Below are positions 27,942 through 44,087 of a stretch of 64,000 nt of DNA, in pieces. The stretch's first letter is position 1, and each line of letters opens with the position of its first letter. Origin of the DNA: a virus; the IMG/VR virus record IMGVR_UViG_3300014613_000001, positions 113,774 through 177,773 of that record. One strand, 5' to 3'. The translations under genes were made by a program, and so were the position numbers. The notes under the pieces were generated by a model that worked only from the letters and a program-made list of their open reading frames with translations, was not told the DNA's origin and made no database searches.

Positions 27942-27954
27942 TCCAGCCAAATAT

Positions 27955-27982
27955 GGGGTGCCCGGCGTCATCCGGGCACCCC
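27955..27982. terminator. 11-bp GC hairpin, possibly bidirectional terminator
   Basis: GGGGTGCCCGG-CGTCAT-CCGGGCACCCC with A/T-rich flanks. Confidence 0.55.
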
Positions 27983-28009
27983 CGTCACTATTTGATCTCC
28001 AGGAGCACC

Positions 28010-28354
28010 ATGCAAGAGATTCTGATCATCGCATTCGGCTCAGTCGGATTCGATTCGACGATCATTGGACATATCAGAGACGGGATCGTTGACCATCTCA
28101 TGAATGTCGAAGGTTGGAGTAGCACGTACATTCTGGATCAGCTTGGCGTGGACACCTTTGAGCATGAGGGGAAGATCCTTATCTGGGAGGGTGAGGTAGC
28201 TTGGGAACGTGATCTAGGTTCCGAGTTCAACGGTGAGCTCCGGGAGCCGATGATGGACGAGTGGAACATGCTGATCGAGCACAGCCAGGTCGAAAATGAT
28301 CCGGATCTGCCCGATGATAATGACTTCGAGGATTCGGAGTATTACGGGAGCTGA
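28010..28354 (+). CDS. Acidic hypothetical protein
   Basis: AGGAG RBS. Confidence 0.6.
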   Translation: MQEILIIAFGSVGFDSTIIGHIRDGIVDHLMNVEGWSSTYILDQLGVDTFEHEGKILIWEGEVAWERDLGSEFNGELREPMMDEWNMLIEHSQVENDPDLPDDNDFEDSEYYGS

Positions 28355-28378
28355 TGAGAGGAGATGTGGCACTATGAG

Positions 28379-28409
28379 GTCTGAGATCAGTAAGCCTCTC
28401 AGCTGGCAT
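28379..28409 (-). repeat. 31-nt hairpin repeat, copy B
   Basis: Reverse strand ATGCCAG CTGAGA GGCTTACTGA TCTCAG AC. Confidence 0.9.
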
Positions 28410-28426
28410 TAGCAAATCCTGATCAG

Positions 28427-28461
28427 AGCTTATGCTCGTCAGGTACATTGTCAATAAAAAA
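28427..28461 (-). promoter_or_regulatory. Leftward sigma70-like promoter feeding repeat B
   Basis: Reverse strand T-tract, TTGACA (28454-28449), 16 nt, TAAGCT (28432-28427). Confidence 0.65.
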
Positions 28462-28477
28462 GGCAAGGAGCAGAAGG

Positions 28478-28915
28478 ATGAGTGAAAATTGGCGGGAGAA
28501 GATTGCAGAACTCGAGCTCAAGGTCAAAGAACTCGAGCTCCAGCTTTCTACCGAGAAGGACAACGCCGCGGTGGACGCACTCGACGCCATCGTCCAGCTC
28601 TGCGGCCAAGGTGGGTGGGAGTACCCCGGTCAGGTTGTGAGAGACGTCGCAGCGTTGGTGGAGGAGCGCGACACGGCGCGCAAACGTTCGCACCTGAGGC
28701 GCGGGCAGCTCGGCCAATACGTGATGGCAGGTGAGCTGTACCGCGCACTCTACACACACCTGTACGTAGTGTACAAAGAGTGCGGAACGATTGTGGAGAA
28801 AGGCTCCTCCGCCAACACGGGCGAATACGCAGTGGCTATCCAGGAGATCGTGGCGCTGGTCTTGCGTGCTCTCGAGCAGGAGTATGACCGCGACCGGTCA
28901 AATCGAGATCAGTAA
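28478..28915 (+). CDS. Coiled-coil hypothetical protein
   Basis: AAGGAG RBS; contains W.YPGQVVRDV motif. Confidence 0.65.
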   Translation: MSENWREKIAELELKVKELELQLSTEKDNAAVDALDAIVQLCGQGGWEYPGQVVRDVAALVEERDTARKRSHLRRGQLGQYVMAGELYRALYTHLYVVYKECGTIVEKGSSANTGEYAVAIQEIVALVLRALEQEYDRDRSNRDQ

Positions 28916-28974
28916 GTCTCCTTGTCTTTAGGACGAGGAGTAAGGATCGTCTCCGAGATAATTGATCTGTTCTC

Positions 28975-29005
28975 ATACCAGCTGGGAGGTTTAGTGATCT
29001 CAGAC
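28975..29005 (+). repeat. 31-nt hairpin repeat, copy C
   Basis: ATACCAG CTGGGA GGTTTAGTGA TCTCAG AC. Confidence 0.9.
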
Positions 29006-29085
29006 GGAACCCAATACAGTCTAATTCTTGGGTATAAGGTGAACGAATTTGGAGACAGACTAAGCTCCTCAAGAAAGGTAGAAAA

Positions 29086-29532
29086 GTGGAAACTACGCAG
29101 TATCCAAGACCACGAGAGTTGTCGTTGAGTGGTGGCCAGAAGAGCGGCAAGACGCATGCCGCATTACTACTGGCCTGGGGGTATTCCCAGGTCGGCTACA
29201 CCGTGGCAGTGTTGTCTGCTAACGGTTCTCGCGGGGCGGCCACGCTGAGGAAGCTACCGAGGCTATCGGTTCCGGAGATACTCCTCAGCATCAAGCATCG
29301 TTGGCTGCTCAATGTCGCGCTGAAGCTGCTGAAGAGCGTCAAACTCGGAAACGTTCTTATCTTTTCGGGTGATCTTGCCCATCAGATGGCGCGCATCCTC
29401 CAGCGAGACTCACTCGACGTCCTGGTCGTCGATGTGGACTACCCCACCGATGAACTGATAGACCTGGTCACGATAGCCAGGAAGCAGTTCCAAGGTCTCT
29501 CGGTTATATGGACAACGGTGCAGTTCCGATGA
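29086..29532 (+). CDS. Small P-loop NTPase-like protein
   Basis: LSGGQKSGKTH Walker A; DVLVVD Walker B. Confidence 0.6.
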   Translation: METTQYPRPRELSLSGGQKSGKTHAALLLAWGYSQVGYTVAVLSANGSRGAATLRKLPRLSVPEILLSIKHRWLLNVALKLLKSVKLGNVLIFSGDLAHQMARILQRDSLDVLVVDVDYPTDELIDLVTIARKQFQGLSVIWTTVQFR

Positions 29533-29634
29533 TTATAGGATCAGTAAAGGCCAGCGAGCTTGATCCAAAATCGCTGCGTGCAGAAGACTATCTGTTCAAC
29601 CCTGACGAAGAGGCGCGCAAACTGGTAGGGTGTC

Positions 29635-29862
29635 ATGAGCAGGTTCACGGAGCAGGAGGTGGAGATCACTGTTGGACCTGTTACAGCTTGGGTACGCCAG
29701 ACGAAATCTCTGGGGGCCGAGATCGACCTGAGCGATCGTGGGATTCACGACGTGATTGTGATCCCAGAAAACCGGATGGTTGCCTACGCGGATGTGTTCG
29801 ATCTTCTATCGAAGGTACTCGGCGCGTGGCAGAGGGGAGGCAAGGAGCAGACGGATGGGTGA
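29635..29862 (+). CDS. Hypothetical protein
   Basis: 75-aa ORF coupled to the next gene. Confidence 0.5.
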   Translation: MSRFTEQEVEITVGPVTAWVRQTKSLGAEIDLSDRGIHDVIVIPENRMVAYADVFDLLSKVLGAWQRGGKEQTDG

Positions 29863-30334
29863 GAATTGGCGCGCGAAGCGCTGCCACGATTGCGGGTGCG
29901 GGCACGATGAGATTCACGAGCTTGGGTGTGATATGGAGCGTTGTCCATACTGCCTGGGACAACTGATCTCCTGTGATTGCGCCTACGAGCTGTTGGGATT
30001 GGTGGATCACGACGAGTATCCAGACACCGGAGGGCTTCCACCCAAGATATATCGCGGTGGCCTGTCCTCGGAGCAGGGAGAAAAGTGGCTTCAATTGATC
30101 AATGTAAGGGGTCGCATCCCCTATCAGAGCCCGGGGCAGCCGGGGATCGCGGACAACGTCTGGTCGGAGTTCGTCCATCCAGACGGCCACTGCTCCCTCT
30201 GTGGGAACTCAGGTGTCATTGACACACGAGGGCACGTAGAGACCGCAGCTGGTTGGAAGGTGGGGGCGAGGTGCTTCTGCATCTGCCCAAACGGGAGGGC
30301 GTGGAAGACCAGTACCGGTAACCCATCTCAATAG
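29855..30334 (+). CDS. Cys-rich hypothetical protein
   Basis: CHDC...H..GCD.ERCP.C.GQLISCDC and C-terminal C.LCGNSG.ID...C.CPNG. Confidence 0.65.
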   Translation: MGENWRAKRCHDCGCGHDEIHELGCDMERCPYCLGQLISCDCAYELLGLVDHDEYPDTGGLPPKIYRGGLSSEQGEKWLQLINVRGRIPYQSPGQPGIADNVWSEFVHPDGHCSLCGNSGVIDTRGHVETAAGWKVGARCFCICPNGRAWKTSTGNPSQ

Positions 30335-30349
30335 GGAAGCTGGATTAGA

Positions 30350-30736
30350 GTGATTGAATACTGGGCAGGCGAAGAGCCGGCCCAGCTCCACCGAGTCGGA
30401 ATCCTCTGGTGGTCAGAGGCCGACGGGCGGCTCATCGCCCGAGGGGGCTTCGACATGGCCGAAGGCTCGGCCGTTACGCTGACCGTGGTCTCCGACTCCC
30501 TCTCCGGGGAGAGGCGTTTCGACGGATCCGTCCACCCCGACCAGGTGGACGAGCTCCTTGACGCCCCGGAGGGCTACCCCCTCCGCATCGAAGAAAACTG
30601 CGGCCAGGCAGGCGAGACGTGGGCAGTCGCTGGGCCAGTCCCCCCGGAGTTTTCCTCGATTCCCCCCGGGTGGAGAATCGAGGAAAAGTGGGTGCACGGG
30701 CACCCGAGTTCATACTACGTAGTGAAGGCGATCTAG
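30350..30736 (+). CDS. Hypothetical protein, first gene of GC-rich island
   Basis: 128-aa ORF; GC-rich codon usage. Confidence 0.55.
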   Translation: MIEYWAGEEPAQLHRVGILWWSEADGRLIARGGFDMAEGSAVTLTVVSDSLSGERRFDGSVHPDQVDELLDAPEGYPLRIEENCGQAGETWAVAGPVPPEFSSIPPGWRIEEKWVHGHPSSYYVVKAI

Positions 30737-30773
30737 GTGCGTTGAGAGGGCCGAGAGGCCCAAGGAGATTGAG

Positions 30774-31137
30774 ATGAATTTTGCGAACCTGACCCCCCAC
30801 GCCATCGTCGTCCGCACGTCGGACGGCGACATCACGCTCGAGCCGACGACCCCGCCGGCTCGAGTCCAGAACACTGCAGGAAATTTCCTGCGGGAGATCG
30901 ACGGCGTCCCGATCTTCTCGGCTGACGTGCCCGGCAAGATTGAGGGGATCCCCCCCCTCACAAGAGGGCACGATGTATGTCGTGTCAGTCGTCGTGGCGG
31001 GGGCGCTGTCGCCCGAGCGACGCGTCGTGGGGGACGTAGTGGTCCCCGCCACCGGCCCGGCGGACGGGGCGATCCGATATTCAGATGGCCCGCGCCGGGG
31101 CCAGATCGAGGCCGTCACGCGGCTGAAGTTGGCGTGA
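30774..31137 (+). pseudogene. NLTPH-family phage protein frameshifted at a C8 run
   Basis: ORF 30774 N-half plus ORF 30940 C-half join as IEGIPPSQEGTMYVVS if one C is removed from 30950-30957. Confidence 0.7.
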
Positions 31138-31242
31138 CGACCGGCCCTGAGCACGGCCGAAAAAAACTGCTCATCTCGTCGCCGGTCAGATTGCTCGCGG
31201 CGGCGGGACCAAGGAAGGGCTAAGAGCCCAGAAGGAAGAGAG

Positions 31243-32523
31243 ATGACGAGGTACGTGGACCTAGACGCTGCGGCGTCCACATCCCCGCTGCCAGCAGTGG
31301 AGGATGCTGTTCGAGCCTTCCTCGCCGAGTACGGTAGTGTCCACCGGGGGAGTGGGCGCCACAGTAAATTGTCCACGGACGCCTATGACCACGCTCGTCG
31401 CGTGATCAGGCGTTTCGTGGGCGCCGGGGAGGAGGACTACGTCCTCTTCACCGGCAACACAACGGGGGCGATGAACGTCATCGCCCACCACCTCTCCTTC
31501 CTTCGGGGAGGGGTGGCGGTCAGCAGCCTGGAGCACAGCTCCTCGTTGCTGCCCTTCGTGAAAGCGGAGGGCGAGCGGGCGGTGCAAGGCCGCCAATTCG
31601 CACTGGAAGAGCTGGACTCTGTTGCCGAGCAGATCCAGCTCGCGGGTCGAAAGAATGTACACAAGTACATCATCGACCCGTTCCGCGGGATCGACCTGGA
31701 GAGCCTGGAAACTCTCCTGTCGACCCATAAGACGAAGGCGGTCGTCCTGACCGCGTCGTCGAACCTCACGGGGTACTGCCCCCCAATCCGTGAGGTTGCG
31801 CGCCTGGCTCACAGCCACGGTGCGCTGTTGGTCCTGGACGGATGCCAGTTCGTCCAGCACCACGTCCTCAACATGGAGGCTGAGGGCGTGGACTTCGTGG
31901 CCGCATCGGGCCACAAGTTCTATGCCCCCTACGGGGGTGGGTTTCTGGTAGGGCCGAAGTGGTTCTTCGACCGCTTCTTGCCCTACCAAATCGGTGGAGG
32001 CAACCTCCCGTACATCACGGGAGATGGCGAGTTTCTTCGGTTCAAGATCGAGCTTGCCCATGACCCCGGTACCCCGAACGCAGTCGGGGCCGTGGCCATG
32101 GCCGCCGCCCTCGAGGAGATGGAGAAGATCGGACTGGACCGGATCTTCTCGCACGAGAAGGCCCTCGCCATGCGGGCGCATGAGGGTCTCAGTTCCATCC
32201 CAGGAGTGGAGCTGTACGTAGAACGGGAGCGGTTGGGCACCGTCGTCCCGTTCAATCTCCGAGGGCAAGACCCCAAAGAGGTTGCCGAAATCCTCTCGAC
32301 GCAGTTTGACATCGGCGTTCGCGCCGGATCGTTCTGTGTCTATGAGGGCGTGCGGCAACTTCTCGGGATCACCCCCGAGGAGGACGCCCGAATCGCCGAG
32401 AGGGTTCGCCTCGGTGATACCAGCAGCATCCCGGGGCTCATCCGAGCCTCGGTGTGCTGGCACACGCGGACCGAGGACGTGGACCGTCTCATCGAGGCGG
32501 TTCGCGTGGTGGCAGGAGGATGA
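31243..32523 (+). CDS. Cysteine desulfurase-like PLP enzyme (aminotransferase class V, SufS-like)
   Basis: YVDLDAAAST; SGHK PLP lysine; GTPN; GVRAGSFC catalytic-Cys loop; IRAS. Confidence 0.85.
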   Translation: MTRYVDLDAAASTSPLPAVEDAVRAFLAEYGSVHRGSGRHSKLSTDAYDHARRVIRRFVGAGEEDYVLFTGNTTGAMNVIAHHLSFLRGGVAVSSLEHSSSLLPFVKAEGERAVQGRQFALEELDSVAEQIQLAGRKNVHKYIIDPFRGIDLESLETLLSTHKTKAVVLTASSNLTGYCPPIREVARLAHSHGALLVLDGCQFVQHHVLNMEAEGVDFVAASGHKFYAPYGGGFLVGPKWFFDRFLPYQIGGGNLPYITGDGEFLRFKIELAHDPGTPNAVGAVAMAAALEEMEKIGLDRIFSHEKALAMRAHEGLSSIPGVELYVERERLGTVVPFNLRGQDPKEVAEILSTQFDIGVRAGSFCVYEGVRQLLGITPEEDARIAERVRLGDTSSIPGLIRASVCWHTRTEDVDRLIEAVRVVAGG

Positions 32524-33662
32524 GTGCCGTCCTCAAGGCGCTGCGGGCCATGCCCGTGAGCGTCAACTGCTACCACGGTGACCCCACCCTCCAGTGGGGC
32601 AACACCGTTCAAAAATTGGAGGATCTCGCTGCCGAAGGCCACACGGGCCCGGTCAGCGTAATCACCAAGGGTGCCCTCGGCCCGGCGAGAGGTAGGAAGC
32701 TCGCTGAGCTGAAGGGGAGACTCCCGGGCCTGCTGGTGATGGTTTCCATCAGCGGACTAGGGAGGGAGTTCGAGAAGGCGGGACACGACCACCGGTACCG
32801 AGCTCTCGCCACCCTGCGGGAGGTGGGGGTCCCCGCCTTCGCGGCTGTCAGGCCGCTGACCCCTCCGTATAACACCACTCCAGAGGTGTTGTACGAGATC
32901 TTCTCTCGACTGCAAGCTGTCGGCTGCGAGACAGCTTGTGTGTCGGGGTTCCGAGGGGACTCATCCCTGATCGAGGCTATGGAGCCGTCGGCAGGGATCG
33001 AGTGGGTCTTGCGGGTGAAGCAGATGACGGGGTTCGACCTCGTCAAGCGGATCGCCGATCAATGCGGCGTCCGCCTGTTCACCCGTGTGTCCTGTTGTGC
33101 GTCCTACCTCACTGGGAGGACTGGGACGTACAACCCCTATTGGGGGTCGCCCCAGTTGGTTCGTTGCGAGGAGATCGGCTGTCCGCTGGTCGACTTCTGT
33201 GGACCAGTGGCCCCTGACCCAGAGGTCGTGTCCTGGCTTGAAAGAGTTGGATACGACCTTCGGGTGGAGCAGCGCTGCCAGGAGCGCTGCCGGTTCAGCG
33301 CGGACAACCGCCTGAACTGTAAGAGCTGCTGTACGACCTGCTTCGTGCAGCCGCAGCCCCGGGTGATTGTGCGCAACGCACGAACTCTCGGGGATTTGGC
33401 CTTCGTCAGGTTCGTTCTCGGCGGGACCCTTGCGGTCAAGCCGGGCATGATTGACGGAGGGGATCGAGACGTTGGGCGAGTCTCGGTTCTGAGTGAGCTC
33501 CTTGGGCAGGAGCTCCACTGCATCAATTCCTGGTGGGTGTGGGCCACCCGCAAGGAGTCCTGCTTCGGGTGCAGGTACTGTATCAGTACCCTCTACCCGG
33601 GGCAGGGCACGGTCGGCTGCCCCCCGGCTGACCTGGCCGACATGGTGGATAGTCATGTTTGA
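32520..33662 (+). CDS. Radical-SAM-like TIM-barrel protein lacking the N-terminal CX3CX2C, with Cys-rich C-terminus
   Basis: HGDP and VITKG segments parallel the neighbour's ITDP and LVTKW; C-terminal CKSCCTTC and CFGCRYC. Confidence 0.6.
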   Translation: MSAVLKALRAMPVSVNCYHGDPTLQWGNTVQKLEDLAAEGHTGPVSVITKGALGPARGRKLAELKGRLPGLLVMVSISGLGREFEKAGHDHRYRALATLREVGVPAFAAVRPLTPPYNTTPEVLYEIFSRLQAVGCETACVSGFRGDSSLIEAMEPSAGIEWVLRVKQMTGFDLVKRIADQCGVRLFTRVSCCASYLTGRTGTYNPYWGSPQLVRCEEIGCPLVDFCGPVAPDPEVVSWLERVGYDLRVEQRCQERCRFSADNRLNCKSCCTTCFVQPQPRVIVRNARTLGDLAFVRFVLGGTLAVKPGMIDGGDRDVGRVSVLSELLGQELHCINSWWVWATRKESCFGCRYCISTLYPGQGTVGCPPADLADMVDSHV

Positions 33663-34530
33663 ACCAGGAAAGCCGGCATGCCCTATCGCATGCCAGTATT
33701 GCTTCATCACGGAGCATGATACCCGGCGCGCGGTGTGGAACCGCGCTTCCATGGCGGGTGTGAACAAGGCGTGTACCTACGTCAATGTCCCGCCCTGGAT
33801 TCGCGAGGACGCCGATGCCCAGCGACGCTTTTCGGTGTTTCCCTGGGACCTGCTCAAAGGTGATGTGGTCGGTTTCACCGCGATCACCGATCCTTGCTGG
33901 CCCCGGCTGGAGCCACAACTCCGGGAATTCTTGGAGCGGGCCGGGACAGCGGCCAAAATGGTGACGCTCGTCACCAAATGGCCGCTGTCTCGCCGACAGG
34001 TTCGGTTCCTGTCCGATGTTCCGAATCTGTTCCTGGTGATCTCGATCACCGGGAACCCACCCCCAATAGAGGGGGTTCCCGTCTCCAAACACCTCGAAAC
34101 CCTTGAGAGGTGCAAAGATGCAGGGATCCCCTCACTCCCGATCGTGCACCCCTACATCAGTGGGGTGAGCGATCTGGGTTTTCTCCCCAACCTGATTGAG
34201 TTGGGGTACGACCAGGTAGGGGTAAAAGGCATCCGGTACTGCGACGCGCACATGGCGTCGTGGATGCCTTCCCTCTCCAGGGGGGCCTACCGTGGTCGTG
34301 AGGACGAGGAGGTGCTGCCAGAAGACGGCTGGCGCCAGCTCGTCGAGGACGCAGGGTTCACCCTGCGTTCTCCCAAGGATTGGTACCTCGAGCAGGTGTC
34401 AACCCTTGGTCCTCACCTAGAACGAGGTGAAGCGGAGAACCTGGTAGATCAGGTCTTCCGTCTCGCCAACGTGACATCATCGTCGGACGACGCTTCTGTC
34501 TGGGAAGCGGCCATTCGACGAAGGATGTAG
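33655..34530 (+). CDS. Radical SAM protein (spore photoproduct lyase-like architecture)
   Basis: CPIACQYC motif at the N-terminus; TDP, VTK, P.I.GVSD segments. Confidence 0.8.
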   Translation: MFEPGKPACPIACQYCFITEHDTRRAVWNRASMAGVNKACTYVNVPPWIREDADAQRRFSVFPWDLLKGDVVGFTAITDPCWPRLEPQLREFLERAGTAAKMVTLVTKWPLSRRQVRFLSDVPNLFLVISITGNPPPIEGVPVSKHLETLERCKDAGIPSLPIVHPYISGVSDLGFLPNLIELGYDQVGVKGIRYCDAHMASWMPSLSRGAYRGREDEEVLPEDGWRQLVEDAGFTLRSPKDWYLEQVSTLGPHLERGEAENLVDQVFRLANVTSSSDDASVWEAAIRRRM

Positions 34531-34572
34531 CTCTGGTACTGAGGTGAGCCGGGGAGACGGGGGGCAGACCCC

Positions 34573-34620
34573 CGCCCCCGCTCCTCGGGGGCTCGGGGCA
34601 GTGAGAGGGCCTGAAGGCCC
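34573..34620 (+). repeat. GC-rich two-hairpin leader element, copy 1
   Basis: 36-nt match (1 mismatch) to 35829-35864, then GGGCC-TGAA-GGCCC before the RBS. Confidence 0.85.
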
Positions 34621-34632
34621 GGAGGAGATGTC

Positions 34633-34878
34633 ATGAAAATAACGTTGAGAAATTCACTCCACAACACGTCCGTCCGCGTCGTCGCTCCCGAGAGCCTCGT
34701 GCTCTCTAAGAGCCAGGTCGCCAGGGCGCGCCGCGCCCTCTGCGGGATGCCCGGGTGCAAGTGCGCGAGCACGGCTCTCGGAACCTACGGCGAGAGTCCC
34801 GAGGGATCAGACGGCACCTTCTATGGTGTCGAGGACCTCTATGACGGTCGCGTTGAGCTGGTCGAGGTGACACGATGA
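34633..34878 (+). CDS. Hypothetical protein
   Basis: GGAGGAG RBS; TLRNSLHNTSV...RRALCGMPGCKC. Confidence 0.65.
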   Translation: MKITLRNSLHNTSVRVVAPESLVLSKSQVARARRALCGMPGCKCASTALGTYGESPEGSDGTFYGVEDLYDGRVELVEVTR

Positions 34879-35075
34879 CCACGACGGACCTGCAAGAGGC
34901 GGCCCTTGCCGCCCTGGCCCGAGCCCAGGAAGCAGAAGCCGCGTTGGCCCGGCTGGTGGCGGAGCACCAGCAGCTCGAGCGCCTGGTGCGCGAGCACTGG
35001 GATGCGTCTCGGCGGGCTGGTATCAGGCCCCACGACGAGCAGCTCCACGCTGGCTATCTCCGGCTGGAGCAGTAG
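34875..35075 (+). CDS. Coiled-coil hypothetical protein
   Basis: ATGA coupling. Confidence 0.55.
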   Translation: MTTTDLQEAALAALARAQEAEAALARLVAEHQQLERLVREHWDASRRAGIRPHDEQLHAGYLRLEQ

Positions 35076-35126
35076 GCCGAAACCGGGGCAACCCGGTCCG
35101 GGCGTAGGGCGCCCGCTGACGAGGCC
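35075..35126 (+). ncRNA. Type II hammerhead ribozyme
   Basis: GGCC-GAAA-CCGGG(GCAA)CCCGG-TC-CGGGCG(TAGGG)CGCCCG-CTGACGA-GGCC: full catalytic core with GUC cleavage triplet. Confidence 0.9.
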
Positions 35127-35148
35127 GTCAGAGCAAGGAGAAGAGAAA

Positions 35149-35616
35149 ATGAACGATCAGAATGAAGCCATCGAAACCACCGGCCGTATTCCTCGGATCG
35201 TCGGCCCCGACGGGGCAGAGGCAGTCGCCACCGAGGTCGGGATCTGCGCCGACTGCGGTTGCGCCGGCCTGGTGTCCGACTGGCCGGGACGCGGCGCGCT
35301 ATGCGCCGCAGCGGATGATGGCCGGCTGATCTGTGACGACTGCGCCGAGCTCGAGGCCGAGCCCGAGCCCATCCCGGAGCCCGTCCCGTGCACGAACGGG
35401 ATAGGCTACGACTGCCACTCGGGGGGCTATCTCCCCGAGTGGTTGATCGCGGCGGTGGCCTCAGCGATAGCCGAGGCCCACGACGACGGAGTGTCGTCGT
35501 GCGGCGGGGGCGCCCCCCTCGCCAACTGGGACCTCGACTGTCCCCTCTGGTCGTCGGAGGGGGAGCGTTCGGCCCGCCATCGGGCCGTCGAGGCCCTGAA
35601 GAAGGGGGTGAAGTGA
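35149..35616 (+). CDS. Cys-rich hypothetical protein downstream of the ribozyme
   Basis: AAGGAG RBS; CADC...CDDC. Confidence 0.6.
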   Translation: MNDQNEAIETTGRIPRIVGPDGAEAVATEVGICADCGCAGLVSDWPGRGALCAAADDGRLICDDCAELEAEPEPIPEPVPCTNGIGYDCHSGGYLPEWLIAAVASAIAEAHDDGVSSCGGGAPLANWDLDCPLWSSEGERSARHRAVEALKKGVK

Positions 35617-35807
35617 TGTATGTAGTTCTGTGTGATCTCGATGAAGGAGCTCATATCTCCTCCTGCCACGAGACGCGGGAGGAGGGGGAGGCGGCACTAG
35701 CCGCCGTCCCGCTCCGAGGAATAACACACGATTGGGCCTCGCTCGTCGAGGTCCATCCGGGGGTGCCCCCGCGGATGGTCGCGGGAAGATGCCCCGACGG
35801 AGAGTAG
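35616..35807 (+). CDS. Hypothetical protein
   Basis: Coupled start; HETREEGEAAL. Confidence 0.55.
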   Translation: MYVVLCDLDEGAHISSCHETREEGEAALAAVPLRGITHDWASLVEVHPGVPPRMVAGRCPDGE

Positions 35808-35828
35808 ACCTCTCCCGTCCCTGGTCAC

Positions 35829-35875
35829 CGCCCCCGCTTCTCGGGGGCTCGGGGCAGTGAGAGGCCGAGAGGCCC
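35829..35875 (+). repeat. GC-rich two-hairpin leader element, copy 2
   Basis: CGCCCCCGCTTCTCGGGGGCTCGGGGCAGTGAGAGG then GGCC-GAGA-GGCC. Confidence 0.85.
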
Positions 35876-35985
35876 AAGAGGAGCTGATATGGCAAGCAAA
35901 AGTGGTCTCCTCATCCCGATGGAGACTCGATCATCTTGCATGATCCACAACATGGTTCGCCAGATACCGAAGTGGGAGAGTCACA

Positions 35986-36492
35986 ATGAGCAGCAAGTAC
36001 GAGAGCATTGGTCGGGGAACGACGAGAGCGATTCTGCGTCGTCACGCTAGCAGCGAGGAACAAAGTTTGCAAAGTCCGCAGGATGAAACGAGTGATCAGC
36101 TTCGTGAGGAGATGAACTACATATACGCTGCACTGGATGAAATCATATCGGCGAATGCCCGGGCCCGGCACGAGGGTCGCGACTCAGCTGTGACGCAGCA
36201 TATGACCGTGCTGGCTCGAGGTGGTTTTGCCGCGCTCGAGTACGCCCGGACGTATTTCATGCTCCTCAACGATACTCGGATCGATTCCGAGAGGCAAAAG
36301 TCCGAACAGGTCAAGAAGGACCGTCTGCTTCATCAAGCGATGGGCCTTCTGGTCACTGTTTGTGGAAAGGAGCGCGTGCCAGCTGAGTGGAGAAGGGATC
36401 TGGCGGCATTCATTGACGAACACGCCGTCGTCAAGTCAGAGGATTTCATTGACGAACACGCCGTCGTCAAGTCAGAGGATGCCGATGCCTGA
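35986..36492 (+). CDS. Hypothetical protein with exact 36-bp tandem duplication
   Basis: FIDEHAVVKSED x2 (36409-36480). Confidence 0.6.
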   Translation: MSSKYESIGRGTTRAILRRHASSEEQSLQSPQDETSDQLREEMNYIYAALDEIISANARARHEGRDSAVTQHMTVLARGGFAALEYARTYFMLLNDTRIDSERQKSEQVKKDRLLHQAMGLLVTVCGKERVPAEWRRDLAAFIDEHAVVKSEDFIDEHAVVKSEDADA

Positions 36493-36925
36493 CTTGGTAG
36501 TGAGGGTTGAAAGTCCTGGCCAGCCCAAGGAGAGCTACCGGGACAGTCCGTTGACCCAAGAATTATCGTCCATGGATCAGCTTCGGGTAGATGTCGACGA
36601 CCTGCGGAAGAAGAACGGAAGTCTCACGCTGAGAGTTGCTAAACTCGAGAGCCGAACCTCAGGACTGGGCGAAGACATACTGCGCCTATCTGGTTCCCGG
36701 GTGCAGTCTCCGATAGGCCGAGCGATATTCCTGCTCGTCAGCGTGATTGTCATGGCGGTCTGCATGATCGTCATGGAGATCGCGCTTCTTTTCGCGTTCA
36801 GTAGAATCGACTGGGAGGGTTCGGGCGGCTTTGAGTACATCGTCTACACTATCTGCGGAGCAAGCTGTCTTGCACTCTCCATAGCCGCATGGACCAAGCT
36901 CCACGACATGCTCGCAAAGCGCTAG
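36485..36925 (+). CDS. Coiled-coil plus two-TM membrane protein
   Basis: Two hydrophobic helices in the C-terminal half. Confidence 0.6.
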   Translation: MPDLVVRVESPGQPKESYRDSPLTQELSSMDQLRVDVDDLRKKNGSLTLRVAKLESRTSGLGEDILRLSGSRVQSPIGRAIFLLVSVIVMAVCMIVMEIALLFAFSRIDWEGSGGFEYIVYTICGASCLALSIAAWTKLHDMLAKR

Positions 36926-36940
36926 ATCAGCAGGTGCAAT

Positions 36941-37633
36941 GTGACGAACGAGAATTGTCTGAGGGGATTCGAGTGCCCTGAGTGTGGTCACACCGATAAG
37001 TTCTACATCGAATGCACTGTCGTCATGGCTGTGTATGATGACGGGGCCAATGAGACGACGAGTGATGTGGAGTGGAACGATACGTCATACTGTCGTTGTG
37101 CACTGTGCGACCACTTTTCTACAGTACGCGAGTTCGTTGAAAAGGAGGAGAAGGATGAGCTCGCAGAGTATGACAACTTCGAGGAGTGCGATGGGGATGA
37201 CGTGTGGTGTGAGGAAGGTACTCATAGCGTCATCGGAGAGGCTGATGACGATGAGCAGCTCCCAACATACGTTCTGACATCAGACGGCGTGTCGTTCAAG
37301 CCAGGTAAGATCATTACCGAACGCTGGGACCTCCCACCCTCACTCACTGTGTCGAAATGTCTTACCATTCGACCGGAGGCCCGTACCTACCTGTGTGAGC
37401 ACGACATAGACATCCCTCCGCAGGCTGAGGTCTATGTGTGGCGTGAGCACGGGAGTAGCCGTAGGCTGGACTCTGGCGACATCTATGACTCGATGGAGCG
37501 TAGAGTGTTTCTGGCCGGGACGAAGGGTGAGTTCTACTTCGTCGATCTTGAACCACATGCGAACTGGGCGCACCCTTGCTTGTACGTTTTTGTGGAGGAG
37601 GATCACGATGGCAACAAAGACAACCGGAGCTGA
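36941..37633 (+). CDS. Zn-finger acidic hypothetical protein
   Basis: CPEC...CALC; DLEPHANWAHPCLYVFV. Confidence 0.6.
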   Translation: MTNENCLRGFECPECGHTDKFYIECTVVMAVYDDGANETTSDVEWNDTSYCRCALCDHFSTVREFVEKEEKDELAEYDNFEECDGDDVWCEEGTHSVIGEADDDEQLPTYVLTSDGVSFKPGKIITERWDLPPSLTVSKCLTIRPEARTYLCEHDIDIPPQAEVYVWREHGSSRRLDSGDIYDSMERRVFLAGTKGEFYFVDLEPHANWAHPCLYVFVEEDHDGNKDNRS

Positions 37634-39755: not shown

Positions 39756-40451
39756 ATGGGATGTGACATTCACTGCTACGTTGAGGTACGCGGCAGCGAC
39801 GGAAAATGGCAGTTCACGGACGACGGGTACTTTGCACGGCGACCAGATTATGGAGCAAATGATATAGGCACCCTCAAGGCGTGATGGAATGACAGGCCGA
39901 AGTATCTCTATGAAGGGAGAAACTATAATCTCTTCTCCATCTTGGCAAATGTACGGAACGGGTATGGTTTTGCCGGCTTCAGGACCGGAGATGGGTTTGT
40001 GCCAATCTTCAATCCCCGCGGCGTGCCCGAGGACGCAAGCCCTGAGTTTGTGGAGATCTCGGACGGGTGGGGTGGCGATGGGCACAGTCACAGCTACCTT
40101 ACCGTTCGGGAGTTGCTCGACTATGATTGGGATCAACAAACCCGGCTATGTGGCTGGGTTGGCGAGGAAGAATACGTCAAGTGGCGTGATAAAGGATCAC
40201 CGAGCAGCTGGGTCGGTGGCATTTCTGGCCAATGTGTCAAGCACGTAACAAACGAGGAGATGGAACAGCATATCTGCGAGAAGCAGGCTCACGTACCTCA
40301 GGCTCACAGTGCCGACGCTGTGTTTACAGAGGTCTCCTGGGGTACCTCGTATCGGGAGTGTGCTTCTGTGTTCTTGGAAGAGACCCTGCCCGCCCTCCAA
40401 GAACTCGGTCCGTCCAAAGATGTACGGATCGTTTTCTTCTTCGACAATTGA
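39756..40451 (+). pseudogene. MGCDIH-family phage protein interrupted by one in-frame TGA (39882-39884)
   Basis: MGCDIHCYVE... continues in frame through TGA into GRNYNLFSILANVRN...HSHSYLTVRELLDYDW. Confidence 0.75.
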
Positions 40452-40460
40452 TCTGTTCTC

Positions 40461-40491
40461 ATACCAGCTGGGAGGTTTAGTGATCCTAGAC
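40461..40491 (+). repeat. 31-nt hairpin repeat, copy D
   Basis: ATACCAG CTGGGA GGTTTAGTGA TCCTAG AC. Confidence 0.9.
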
Positions 40492-40540: not shown

Positions 40541-42550
40541 ATGTTCAAAGAATTCAAGATTGCCATAGAGCGACAGTTCGAGTTGATGAAGGGTCATCAG
40601 CTCTTCCGCACAGAAGTGGAGAAAGAACTCCTGTGGCTCACCTACCTCGAGAGCTTCCCTCCGGGAACCAATCCACAGTACAAAGAACGCACCGAGTACG
40701 ACTGCCAGGCGTGCAAGAGCTTCATCCGCGCCGTGGGCAGCATGGTTGCCGTCATCGACGGTGAGCTGGTCTCCCTGTGGGACGTGGAGGTGAACCGCCC
40801 CTACGACAAGGTGGCCGCGGAGTTGTCGGAGCTTGCGAAGAGCGCTCCGATCAAGAACATCCTACTTCACGATTCCGCTTTGGTCGGTGTCGACAAGAAC
40901 TTTCAGGATCTCGATGGGGAGATACTGACCTGGGAGCACTTCTACCTCAAGCTCCCACCGTCCTGTGTCAATAATGATCGTGGAGCCGTTTACGCGGACA
41001 AGCGATCGCAGAAGGATGTCTTCGCTCGGTCGCTTCAAGAGATCACTATCGACGCCCTCGAGACCGTGGTCGATCTCATCGGGCAGAACTCGCTCTATCG
41101 GGGGGAGGAGCATCTGCACTCGGTGCAATCGTTCCAGAAGGAGAAGAAGGCCTACGACAAGCTCGAGACCCCTCGGGCACAAGAGCTCTTCTGCTGGCGG
41201 CAGGATCTGGGCCCGGCAGTTACGAGGATCCGTAGCTCTGCCATCGGCACGTTGCTGGTTGACCTCTCGGAGGGCGAGGATTTGGACGCCGCGGTACGGA
41301 TGTTCGAGTCCAAGGTGGCTCCCTCCAACTACAAGCGTCCCAAGTCTATCGTGACCAAAGCCATGATCGAGCGCGCTCGTAAGACCGTGGAGGAGCTTGG
41401 CTATGGTACGGCCCTCGGTCGTCGGTTCGCGGTCATTGACGACATCACGGTTGACAACGTGCTGTTCGCGAATCGCAACGCGCGGATCAGTATGAGCACC
41501 GACGTCTTTGACGATATGATCTCCGAGACGCCTGGGGATACGAAGCACCTCGACAGGGTCGAAAAGGTCGACATCAACGTCTTCCTCGAGAACATCCTCC
41601 CGAAGGCGACCTCGGTCGAGCTGCTGCTCGAGGGTCGTCACAGCGGCAACTTGGTGAACCTGGTCGCCCCGAGCGATCCAGAGTCCAAGCTGCTCTTCAA
41701 GTGGACCAACAACTTTTCATGGGCCTACGCGGGGGATCTGGCTGATTCGATCAAGGAAAGAGTCAAAGCGCGGGGCGGCAGTGTGACTGGCGATTTCCGC
41801 GCTTCGCTGGCGTGGTTCAACTCTGACGACCTGGATCTTCACCTGATTGAGCCTAGTGGATTCCGCATCTACTTCGGAAACAAAGGCTCCCCCGCAACGG
41901 GCGGTACACTAGATGTAGACATGAACGTCTACGCGTCGGGTCTAGGGTTCTCCCGAAACGCTGTCGAGAATATCACCTACGAATCCCGGAGCAGGATGCG
42001 CAGCGGAGTGTACAAGCTCATTGTCAACAACTACACGCATCGAGAACACATCGACGTGGGGTTCGAGGTCGAGCTCGAGTTCGACGGTCGGATCACGACT
42101 TTCGCCTGTAACCGAGAGGTCCGTTATAAGGAGGACGTGGTGGTGGCGGTCTTCTCCTATTCACCGAGCGAGGGCATCAAGATTCTGCAGTCTCTGCCGA
42201 TGCAGAGCGTCTCGAGGACGCTGTGGAATCTACCGACCGAGAAGTTCCACCCCGTCACCATCGCTCTGCTGTCGCCCAACCACTGGGATAACCGTCCCAC
42301 CGGCAACAAGCACTACTTCTTCATGTTGCAGGATTGCAAACGGGAAGGAAGCTCGAGGGGCTTCTTCAATGAGCAGCTCTCGGATGATCTTCGAGAACAT
42401 AGAAAGGTGTTCGAGATTCTCGGGGCCAAGATGAGGACAGAGGAGGAGGGCGAGCAGCTCAGCGGGCTCGGCTTCTCTTCAACACAGCGGAGCAGCGTGT
42501 ACGCCAAGGTGACTGGTTCGTTCACCCGAATCGTCAATGTCACGTTCTAG
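40541..42550 (+). CDS. Large conserved phage protein with YfaP/DUF2135-like C-terminal domain
   Basis: 669 aa; YDCQACKSFIR; WFNSDDLDLHLIEP...GGTLDVDMN...AVENI. Confidence 0.75.
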   Translation: MFKEFKIAIERQFELMKGHQLFRTEVEKELLWLTYLESFPPGTNPQYKERTEYDCQACKSFIRAVGSMVAVIDGELVSLWDVEVNRPYDKVAAELSELAKSAPIKNILLHDSALVGVDKNFQDLDGEILTWEHFYLKLPPSCVNNDRGAVYADKRSQKDVFARSLQEITIDALETVVDLIGQNSLYRGEEHLHSVQSFQKEKKAYDKLETPRAQELFCWRQDLGPAVTRIRSSAIGTLLVDLSEGEDLDAAVRMFESKVAPSNYKRPKSIVTKAMIERARKTVEELGYGTALGRRFAVIDDITVDNVLFANRNARISMSTDVFDDMISETPGDTKHLDRVEKVDINVFLENILPKATSVELLLEGRHSGNLVNLVAPSDPESKLLFKWTNNFSWAYAGDLADSIKERVKARGGSVTGDFRASLAWFNSDDLDLHLIEPSGFRIYFGNKGSPATGGTLDVDMNVYASGLGFSRNAVENITYESRSRMRSGVYKLIVNNYTHREHIDVGFEVELEFDGRITTFACNREVRYKEDVVVAVFSYSPSEGIKILQSLPMQSVSRTLWNLPTEKFHPVTIALLSPNHWDNRPTGNKHYFFMLQDCKREGSSRGFFNEQLSDDLREHRKVFEILGAKMRTEEEGEQLSGLGFSSTQRSSVYAKVTGSFTRIVNVTF

Positions 42551-42580
42551 TCTGAGATCAATAAGCCTCTCAGCTGGCAT
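42550..42580 (-). repeat. 31-nt hairpin repeat, copy E
   Basis: Reverse strand ATGCCAG CTGAGA GGCTTATTGA TCTCAG AC; overlaps the preceding TAG. Confidence 0.9.
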
Positions 42581-42597
42581 TAGCAAATCCTGATCAG

Positions 42598-42632
42598 AGC
42601 TTATGCTCGTCAGGTACATTGTCAATAAAAAA
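42598..42632 (-). promoter_or_regulatory. Leftward sigma70-like promoter feeding repeat E
   Basis: Identical to 28427-28461: TTGACA-16 nt-TAAGCT. Confidence 0.65.
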
Positions 42633-42637
42633 CATGT

Positions 42638-42668
42638 ATGCCTGCTGGGAGGCTTAGTGATCCCAGAC
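42638..42668 (+). repeat. 31-nt hairpin repeat, copy F
   Basis: ATGCCTG CTGGGA GGCTTAGTGA TCCCAG AC. Confidence 0.9.
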
Positions 42669-42977: not shown

Positions 42978-43499
42978 ATGAGTGAAGAGATCAGCCCGAT
43001 TGGACCGATGAGAGTGCAACTAGAGAAGGACGATTATACGTTCCCCCTGAAAAACGTTGTCCCGTGGGAGGACTGGAAGAAGATCACGGAGACCATTCCC
43101 GAGGATATGTGCTGGCGTAAATCAGCACTGCGTCAGAATGGGGTGTTCGACAGCTTGAAGCTCGGTAACGCTGTTGCGTGTTCGAGTCACACATCCAAGA
43201 GCTGCAAGCTGCCCGTGGTTCGAGGGGTCGTGGCGCCCGGGGTCGTCGTGATCATCCGGGGTAATTTCTATGACTGGAAAGTTAGTGTCATCAGCGATCA
43301 TCCTCTCCCGGGGATCGACGACACCTACCTCTTCGAACCAGAGACGCATCACAGGTCCGTCTACTTCGAGGGCTTCGATAATGCCTGGTGCTTCGGCAGC
43401 TACAAGAACAATCAGCAGCAGTTCTCGGTAGAGCTCGAGTATGACCCACTGCGGCTGTACACTTTCGTTCGAGAACTGCGCCGCGTCAGTACCCGCTGA
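42978..43499 (+). CDS. Hypothetical phage protein
   Basis: VVGxHTSKS-like segment (ACSSHTSKSCKLPV); RGNFYDWKVSV; YFEGF. Confidence 0.65.
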   Translation: MSEEISPIGPMRVQLEKDDYTFPLKNVVPWEDWKKITETIPEDMCWRKSALRQNGVFDSLKLGNAVACSSHTSKSCKLPVVRGVVAPGVVVIIRGNFYDWKVSVISDHPLPGIDDTYLFEPETHHRSVYFEGFDNAWCFGSYKNNQQQFSVELEYDPLRLYTFVRELRRVSTR

Positions 43500-43508
43500 C
43501 CAACGCGT

Positions 43509-43539
43509 ATGCCAGCTGGGAGGCTTAGTGATCCCAGAC
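43509..43539 (+). repeat. 31-nt hairpin repeat, copy G
   Basis: ATGCCAG CTGGGA GGCTTAGTGA TCCCAG AC. Confidence 0.9.
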
Positions 43540-43994: not shown

Positions 43995-44025
43995 CTCTGA
44001 GATCGATAAGCCCCTCAGATGGCAT
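43995..44025 (-). repeat. 31-nt hairpin repeat, copy H
   Basis: Reverse strand ATGCCAT CTGAGG GGCTTATCGA TCTCAG AG. Confidence 0.85.
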
Positions 44026-44042
44026 TAGCAAATCTTGATCAG

Positions 44043-44076
44043 AGCTTACACGCGTCAGGTGCGTTGTCAACAAAAA
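44043..44076 (-). promoter_or_regulatory. Leftward sigma70-like promoter feeding repeat H
   Basis: TTGACA (44070-44065), 16 nt, TAAGCT (44048-44043); spacer diverged from B/E while both boxes are kept. Confidence 0.65.
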
Positions 44077-44087
44077 GGGAGAAGAAC

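Follow-up and report, generated by a model that had tools for sequence, protein, structure and literature searches.

The subject of this study is a cassette of three overlapping genes, here called g1, g2 and g3, found in a virus record of 177,773 bases (IMGVR_UViG_3300014613_000001). The window, i.e. the whole stretch of DNA analyzed, comprises 64,000 nucleotides (nt) of this record (positions 113,774 to 177,773), and the coordinates of the locus count from its first letter. The cassette encodes a cysteine desulfurase and two proteins of the radical S-adenosylmethionine (radical SAM) superfamily. Its parts belong to known superfamilies, but the system as a whole matches no described family. 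The features of the locus are as follows:

31243–32523, + strand: g1, 426 aa, type II (SufS/CsdA-like) cysteine desulfurase dependent on pyridoxal 5′-phosphate (PLP)
32520–33662, + strand: g2, 380 aa, protein of the radical SAM superfamily, circularly permuted as judged by alignment
33655–34530, + strand: g3, 291 aa, canonical radical SAM protein
30001–36000, no strand: GC-rich island holding the cassette, 61–68% G+C versus 52–58% on either side

The three genes are coupled at both junctions, exactly where a preliminary description of this DNA had placed the overlaps. The stop codon of g1 (TGA, 32521–32523) overlaps the ATG of g2 at 32520 to form ATGA, with GGAGG just 5′ of it, while the ATG of g3 at 33655 lies 8 nt ahead of the g2 stop (33660–33662). 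The N-termini of homologues agree with initiation of g2 at ATG 32520, not at the upstream GTG at 32454. The genes upstream of the trio are separated by gaps of just 19 and 37 nt, and no promoter-like site or convincing terminator was found interrupting the stretch. In the composition profile, the island stands well above the genome-wide G+C content of 57.2%.

The source genome carries no tRNA genes. Its first 30 bases are repeated about 120 bases before its end, as expected of a complete, circularly assembled genome. That it is a tailed phage is confirmed by PHROG matches in the window to a major head protein, a tail sheath protein, an HNH endonuclease, a DNA methyltransferase and a helicase.

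The cysteine desulfurase g1

The product of g1 showed the class V aminotransferase fold, with an E-value of 1.6e-69 to Pfam Aminotran_5 (PF00266), and its best matches among PDB sequences were SufS/CsdA structures (1e-46 to 1e-33). Its match to the NCBIfam model of SufS (TIGR01979, 4.7e-67) reached 226.6 bits. Since this lies below the curated cut-off of 475.1 bits, g1 is to be placed, on sequence grounds, in a divergent branch and not as a SufS or CsdA equivalog. The landmarks of the family are all present. K225, in the motif SGHK and invariant in 73 sequences, is the PLP lysine, D199 and Q202 hold the cofactor, and C365 is the catalytic loop cysteine in RAGSFC (residues 360–365), the motif by which g1 had been recognized in the preliminary description as a SufS-like PLP enzyme; in the alignment of PDB sequences C365 lines up with the cysteine of RAGHHC of SufS. 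These four residues, together with H98, N174, H224, R360 and R401, were at least 95% conserved among 73 non-identical cassette-linked homologues. Judging from these residues, g1 is a genuine desulfurase-type enzyme, with the retained persulfide cysteine C365 marking it as a desulfurase and not as a C–S lyase.

The ordinary radical SAM protein g3

In g3, the motif C9-X3-C13-X2-C16 was invariant across 32 homologues, with no further invariant cysteine, which confirms its earlier reading as a CX3CX2C radical SAM protein. Its score against Pfam Radical_SAM (PF04055) was 27.0 bits (6e-6), just below the cut-off of 29.5, and PF04055 is present in the precomputed data of some of its homologues. The AlphaFold2 (AF2) model, with a predicted local distance difference test score (pLDDT) of 92, aligned with VIA-align at Z 10–12 to many radical SAM structures. 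NifB, PFL-AE, SkfB, viperin and SPL tied at Z 10.5–11.8, from the cluster loop onward, and MoaA was also among the matches. Foldseek searches with the models of g2 and g3 returned weak, generic matches to radical SAM or TIM-barrel proteins only, and the sequence profiles of both proteins gave chance-level matches only against PDB sequences.

Concerning the SPL-like layout proposed earlier for g3, the resemblance holds at the level of names and embeddings: the nearest named language-model neighbours in the ESM Atlas are clusters called “SPL family radical SAM protein”, and several homologues bear the JGI name “DNA repair photolyase”. Structurally it is not distinctive, SPL aligning at Z 10.5 over 214 residues as against 10.3–11.8 for other radical SAM enzymes, and no SPL model of Pfam or NCBIfam matched g3. 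In the protein database, g3 of this genome is entered with 259 aa only (P0065), its start lying past CX3CX2C so that the cysteine motif is cut off; this deposited start is probably wrong, because the ATG at 33655 fits all homologues.

The permuted cysteine-rich barrel g2

No match to g2 was found in Pfam, NCBIfam, PHROGs, PADLOC or PDB sequences. Twelve cysteines were invariant in 28 sequences with identities down to 34%. Nine of them lie in the middle of the protein (C192, C216, C221, C227, C257, C267, C270, C271 and C274, with the spacings C216-X4-C221-X5-C227 and C267-X2-C270-C271-X2-C274), and the other three form the C-terminal motif C348-X2-C351-X2-C354. The N-terminus of g2 has neither CX3CX2C nor any other cysteine motif. 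Residues 1–190 make a partial (β/α) barrel that starts at the equivalent of strand β2. The AF2 model (pLDDT 86, predicted template modelling score 0.88) aligned to radical SAM barrels at Z 9–11 over 155–210 residues, and superposed only from the second strand on, i.e. from residue 60 of PFL-AE and residue 124 of SPL onward. Over the barrel core, g2 and g3 were homologous in hhalign with a probability of 94% and an E-value of 1e-7, and the GDP motif of g2 aligned with TDP of g3 at the position of the SAM-binding motif GGE. By this profile comparison g2 is a paralogue of g3, so that its former description as a related, Cys-rich barrel can be kept.

The location of the missing N-terminal element was indicated by a sister clade. 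A search of 1.84 billion representative proteins with the g2 profile yielded 444 relatives, 41 of them with E below 1e-30. The sister clade (P0200, P0204, P0210, P0212, P0215, P0224, P0225 and P0230) lacks the C-terminal segment of g2, and its N-terminus is the element found at the C-terminus of g2, an aromatic-rich strand followed by C-x-x-C-x-Y-C. This cysteine motif precedes the barrel start NN-x-F-G-D-P by about 45 residues, which is the canonical position of the radical SAM cluster loop. When columns 328–380 of g2 were moved to the front, the hhalign comparison with the sister clade improved from a score of 419 to 474 and from E 8e-58 to 2e-65, and the aligned columns increased from 304 to 343 in a single collinear alignment. 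In BLAST, residues 288–355 of g2 matched residues 51–116 of P0197, upstream of the segment matching g2 2–301. When the rearranged g2 was compared with g3 alone, the alignment lengthened from 189 to 222 columns with an unchanged score, so that the decisive comparison is the one with the sister clade.

These alignments show that g2 is circularly permuted, and its permutation with respect to the sister clade implies that the CX2CX2C triad would be the relocated SAM-cluster site. The nine remaining cysteines would be enough for two auxiliary clusters. They do not follow the seven-cysteine pattern of SPASM/twitch proteins (CX9-15GX4C ... CX2CX5CX3C ... C), nor was there a Pfam SPASM match, and the SPASM/twitch enzymes SuiB, SkfB, PqqE and anSME appeared only among the tied structural matches of g2. 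No paper on a permuted radical SAM enzyme was found within the literature searched. As a separate observation, nine IMG/VR contigs of 55–425 kb (L117, L119–L125 and L127) encode P0224-like, non-permuted CX2CX2C radical-SAM-like proteins.

The trio as one unit

With g2 or g3 as the seed, scans by pattern retrieved 114 loci, of which 27 were on genome contigs, 7 on viral contigs and 80 on metagenome contigs. The trio was adjacent in 88 of them, in the order g1-g2-g3 (61 loci), g2-g3-g1 (26 loci) or with g3 inverted (1 locus), and in every order g3 came directly behind g2. As 88 of 114 independently fetched loci keep it, this adjacency is far beyond chance. In most loci without one of the genes a contig end intervenes. 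No widely conserved partner outside the trio was detected across the loci, where the other genes are lineage-specific, although a TrmB-like helix-turn-helix gene recurs in 12 loci. A dedicated sulfur acceptor (SufE, SufU or CsdE) was likewise not seen, the fetched loci showing no conserved neighbour beyond g2 and g3.

The pairwise identities of g1, g2 and g3 were correlated over 59 loci (rho 0.77–0.84), a correlation that shared ancestry alone would yield too. Natural fusions join g1 to g2 (P0190 and P0195), g2 to g3 (P0197) and a kinase to g3 (P0102 and P0109); no g3 fusion longer than 510 aa was found. The fusions of g1 with g2 suggest that g2 may be the sulfur acceptor of g1. Taken together, the conserved adjacency, the unrelated flanks, the fusions and the correlated divergence support the view, already advanced for the single locus, that the three genes constitute one self-contained, co-conserved module.

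Among the 200-odd other open reading frames (ORFs) of the window phage, few matched any locus, and nearly all of those matches were to L108 (Ga0180008_1000045, 128 kb), the only fetched locus sharing other genes with this phage. It contains homologues of four large proteins encoded at 26–39 kb (G000) and of one encoded at 6 kb. In L108, where the trio has the order g2-g3-g1, these large genes are its immediate upstream neighbours, on the opposite strand. L108 is a distant relative of the window phage. In L112 (a 406-kb contig) and L114 (484 kb) the cassette genes are fragmented. An alternative genetic code was considered for them and rejected, as each + strand frame contains all three stop codons across the trio region, and the fragments look like frameshift errors of long-read assembly.

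Distribution and mobility

The description of the cassette as phage-borne is true of this genome but incomplete, as the cassette occurs also in bacterial chromosomes. Many loci lie on contigs of metagenome-assembled genomes (MAGs) labelled Patescibacteria, Saccharibacteria and similar, with cellular flanks (TyrRS/TrpRS, PBP, MreB, CTP synthase, GroEL, RuvB and FtsH), and the genomes of these bacterial carriers measure 0.8–1.7 Mb. Other loci are on IMG/VR viral contigs (L001 and L029–L034) or on gut-metagenome contigs of 90 kb and 170–180 kb; sister-clade members occur on viral contigs as large as 425 kb, and most ESM Atlas members with a taxon are labelled viral. Among 50,697 records of cultured and GenBank phages, neither blastn nor tblastn found any match to the operon, g2, g3 or P0224, apart from generic desulfurase matches of g1; megablast with two related loci, L092 and L071, was equally without result.

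The pattern scan recovered the cassette in 27 of 185,579 species genomes, and of 399 genomes sampled evenly from the Patescibacteria phylum, 3 (about 1%) contained full-length g2. In the clade closest to the window (63–68% identity) the cassette is, as in the window, GC-richer than its flanks (0.515 versus 0.404 in L002; 0.554 versus 0.353 in L036), which suggests, on the basis of composition, a recent horizontal transfer from a GC-rich source. The cassette is a mobile accessory which moves between phages and tiny-genome bacteria, and its rarity indicates that it is not a housekeeping element. So, regarding the two findings that the preliminary description had considered damaging to it, a housekeeping cluster and genes not conserved together, the opposite was observed in both respects.

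Kinase association and substrate clues

The only recurrent functional partner of the trio resembles adenylate kinases, matching Pfam ADK at 8e-12 and adenylate kinases of the PDB at E-values as low as 1e-17. The gene of this adenylate-kinase-like protein adjoins g3 or sits between g2 and g3 in seven loci that span several lineages (L014, L026, L029, L034, L047, L050 and L052). In P0102 and P0109, the N-terminal domain joined to g3 is a homologue of this protein. This fused domain carries the nucleoside monophosphate kinase motifs G-D-L-x-R and D-G-F-P-R, and in PADLOC it matched the kinase of viperin-kinase fusions (8e-9). An analogy is offered by recently published 4′-thionucleoside pathways, in which a radical SAM enzyme, with an Fe-S cluster as its source of sulfur, has a nucleoside kinase gene as neighbour (PMC12691670). 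The kinase partner suggests that the substrate of the trio might be a free nucleotide, a lead which we regard as rather unlikely.

Proposed function and alternative explanations

The reading that we prefer is that the trio is a dedicated radical-SAM sulfur-insertion system, possibly acting on a nucleotide. It can be given a rough probability of 0.45. According to it, g1 would form a persulfide on C365 with the sulfur of cysteine and hand this sulfur directly to g2, a direct hand-over being what the fusion of g1 with g2 argues for. The protein g2 would hold a SAM-type three-cysteine [4Fe-4S] site (CX2CX2C) plus two auxiliary clusters, the latter serving as sulfur source or carrier, as in BioB, LipA, MiaB or AbmM. 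The single-cluster g3, together with g2 and probably as a heterodimer, would abstract hydrogen from the substrate. Both g2 and g3 would be expected to cleave SAM reductively to the 5′-deoxyadenosyl radical, and two radical sites would make two C–H activations possible, as with LipS1/LipS2. With no fourth gene conserved, the compound acted upon would have to be present in every host; it is most likely small and universally available, and the adenylate-kinase-like partner would point to a (purine) nucleotide. Sulfur insertion is favoured by the fusions of g1 with g2, by the intact persulfide machinery unaccompanied by a scaffold protein, and by the two predicted auxiliary clusters.

Several observations weigh against this reading. 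Six IMG/VR contigs (L029–L034) carry g2 and g3 with a cupin gene in front and without g1, an absence that covers about 4–10 kb, with a shorter downstream flank in some. Some of the auxiliary cysteines are missing in the non-permuted sister clade, and the P0224-like clade stands alone, with no g3 or g1 within 8 kb. Radical SAM enzymes with auxiliary clusters (SPASM/twitch) often do no sulfur chemistry. The kinase is found in a minority of loci only, could be the ordinary adk in genomes of the candidate phyla radiation (CPR), and had no detectable homologue near the trio in the window. Lastly, the formation of a C–S bond and the nature of the product are both deduced indirectly.

Among the alternatives, the one that survives best is that g1 only supplies clusters, i.e. 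that it builds or repairs those of g2 and g3, which would carry out radical chemistry not involving sulfur, such as SPL-like repair of DNA lesions or viperin- or MoaA-like rearrangement or dehydration of nucleotides. We consider it rather unlikely, but it has several points in its favour. Radical SAM proteins require [4Fe-4S], hosts of 0.8–1.7 Mb and phage-infected cells may have scant assembly capacity, viperin and MoaA are among the structural matches, the neighbours and names of g3 recall SPL and the DNA repair photolyases, and the viral subgroup L029–L034 does without g1. On the other hand, assembly also needs a scaffold (IscU, SufU or SufBCD), which the cassette does not encode, and the fusion of g1 with g2 is more typical of a stoichiometric sulfur relay than of a general supply. 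As stated above, SPL is structurally no closer to g3 than unrelated radical SAM enzymes, and its family models in Pfam and NCBIfam do not match.

A second alternative, which seems decidedly improbable, is that the trio thiolates or otherwise modifies DNA or RNA in the polymer, which would shield phages from restriction and provide bacteria with an epigenetic or tRNA mark. As substrates, DNA and RNA are available everywhere and would suit a cassette without a conserved partner, SPL-family relatives act on DNA, and DNA-modification modules are common in phages. The PADLOC matches of g1 to SspA (1.2e-23) and DndA (7e-22) fit with this, but they reflect generic desulfurase similarity, and DndC/D/E, SspB/C/D, restriction partners and domains that bind DNA or RNA all lack a conserved association with the trio. 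Defence-type genes (GmrSD_N, reverse transcriptase, Cas12f/TnpB and Csx3) do occur in some flanks, but these are occurrences without a baseline comparison, and the association and fusion with the adenylate-kinase-like protein favour a free nucleotide over a polymer. Nothing was found in support of the anti-restriction role that had been suggested for the operon.

Maturation of a metallocluster or cofactor, with the trio behaving as NifB plus NifS or as HydE/HydG and g2 remodelling clusters for a client protein, is very improbable. NifB was indeed the first or second structural match (Z 10.5 for g2 and 11.8 for g3), the three clusters predicted in g2 recall RS, K1 and K2 of NifB, and two paralogous radical SAM proteins recall HydE/HydG. 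However, the NifB Z-scores tie with those of many radical SAM enzymes, the surroundings of the trio contain no conserved gene for a client, a scaffold or a GTPase, and the benefit to phages of unrelated hosts is hard to see. Finally, an ordinary bacterial housekeeping cluster acquired by the phage by chance is hardly credible, since, even though cellular genes (aminoacyl-tRNA synthetases, PBP, MreB and others) surround many of the loci found on bacterial MAG contigs, the cassette is as rare as the counts given above, its flanks differ everywhere, it forms a GC-deviant island in the closest bacterial hosts, and it is found also on IMG/VR viral contigs, with relatives on viral contigs that reach 425 kb.

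Other features of the region

The neighbouring ORFs at 27953–31223 and 34906–37633 gave no Pfam match and only one weak PHROG match. No PDB relatives were found for the ORF at 34906–35616 or for that at 36221–36925. The latter encodes a 234-aa P-loop protein, without Pfam or PHROG relatives as well, and includes a perfect 36-nt tandem duplication (36409–36480), i.e. a 12-codon repeat.

About 550 nt 3′ of g3, among small ORFs, there is a candidate type II hammerhead ribozyme (35075–35133, + strand). It is a sub-threshold Rfam match which covers the full model (1–66) with 28 bits versus a gathering score of 37; the E-value was 0.0036 in a 1.5-kb search, and the match was absent from a 10-kb Rfam search at E ≤ 0.01. 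A GC-rich 64-nt repeat is present in two copies, 83% identical (34572–34635 and 35828–35891), each of which terminates in GGAGGAG followed, after a few bases, by ATG. The first copy begins 42 nt past the g3 stop and runs into the ORF at 34633–34878. Possibly both copies represent one module that combines a hairpin with a ribosome-binding site. The 28–44 kb region that contains the cassette is flanked by dispersed intergenic repeats of two families:

28379–28461, 42550–42632 and 43995–44077: 83-nt dispersed intergenic repeat, 3 copies, 84–99% identical
28957–29005, 40443–40491, 42620–42668 and 43491–43539: 49-nt dispersed intergenic repeat, 4 copies

Significance and comparison with known systems

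As the preliminary description had supposed, the trio is not a described system: it has no match as such in Pfam, NCBIfam, PHROGs, PADLOC, PDB sequences or the literature searched, and no paper describing a trio of desulfurase and radical SAM proteins was found within the full texts covered. If the sulfur-insertion reading is true, the cassette would be a new enzyme system for biological C–S bond formation, and it would make a new sulfur-containing metabolite or nucleic-acid mark in uncultured phages (gut, groundwater and huge phages) and CPR bacteria. As far as could be found, g2 would be the first clear circularly permuted radical SAM protein, with a CX2CX2C motif, and the methods used to search for radical SAM proteins would have to change, since g2 escapes every current family model. 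A bolder and unlikely extension is that the trio would be a portable factory for a new sulfur-containing nucleotide, or for a sulfur mark on DNA or RNA, through a heterodimer of a normal and a permuted radical SAM protein fed by g1. Phages might employ it to counter host defences or competing phages, and for ultra-small bacteria it might be an accessory trait.

In comparison with known systems, the phosphorothioation systems Dnd and Ssp share only g1 with the trio: g2 and g3 had no PADLOC match, and the partner genes are not conserved. NifB with NifS is alike in that a multi-cluster radical SAM protein stands beside a dedicated desulfurase, but NifU, NifEN, NifX or any nitrogenase context are missing at the trio. 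The likeness of SPL, or of the “DNA repair photolyase” of COG1533, lies in the language-model neighbours and JGI names of g3; unlike the trio, SPL acts alone on DNA, without auxiliary clusters or a desulfurase partner.

Sulfur insertion into a nucleotide from an Fe-S cluster, by AbmM (albomycin) and by ThmA-ThmB-ThmC (4′-thiothymidine), provides the example of a small mobile three-gene cluster with a nucleoside or nucleotide kinase (PMC12691670). These clusters have one radical SAM gene, no desulfurase and a kinase that is dCK/AbmG-like and not adenylate-kinase-like. The structure of AbmM (8wm2) ranked 38th in the comparison with g3 (Z 7.9), showing no homology beyond the superfamily.

The lipoyl synthase of Thermococcus, LipS1/LipS2, consists of two radical SAM proteins, each of which makes one C–S bond on one substrate. 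Both are annotated as biotin-synthase-like, and the substrate is an octanoyl-protein. At the trio, by contrast, no biotin-synthase-like annotation or lipoyl-domain partner was seen.

BioB, LipA and MiaB/RimO, which insert sulfur by means of a sacrificial or carrier auxiliary cluster and act with IscS/SufS, resemble the trio in the radical SAM barrel, the extra Fe-S cysteines and the cysteine-derived sulfur, and the structural matches of g2 and of g3 each include BioB and LipA. At the sequence level, Pfam, NCBIfam and PDB profiles did not place g2 or g3 in any of these families. In each of these cases one protein suffices, with CX3CX2C at its N-terminus, and the sulfur is supplied by a general cellular desulfurase encoded elsewhere. 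The trio, instead, combines two paralogous radical SAM proteins, one of them permuted and carrying CX2CX2C, with a private desulfurase that is sometimes fused.

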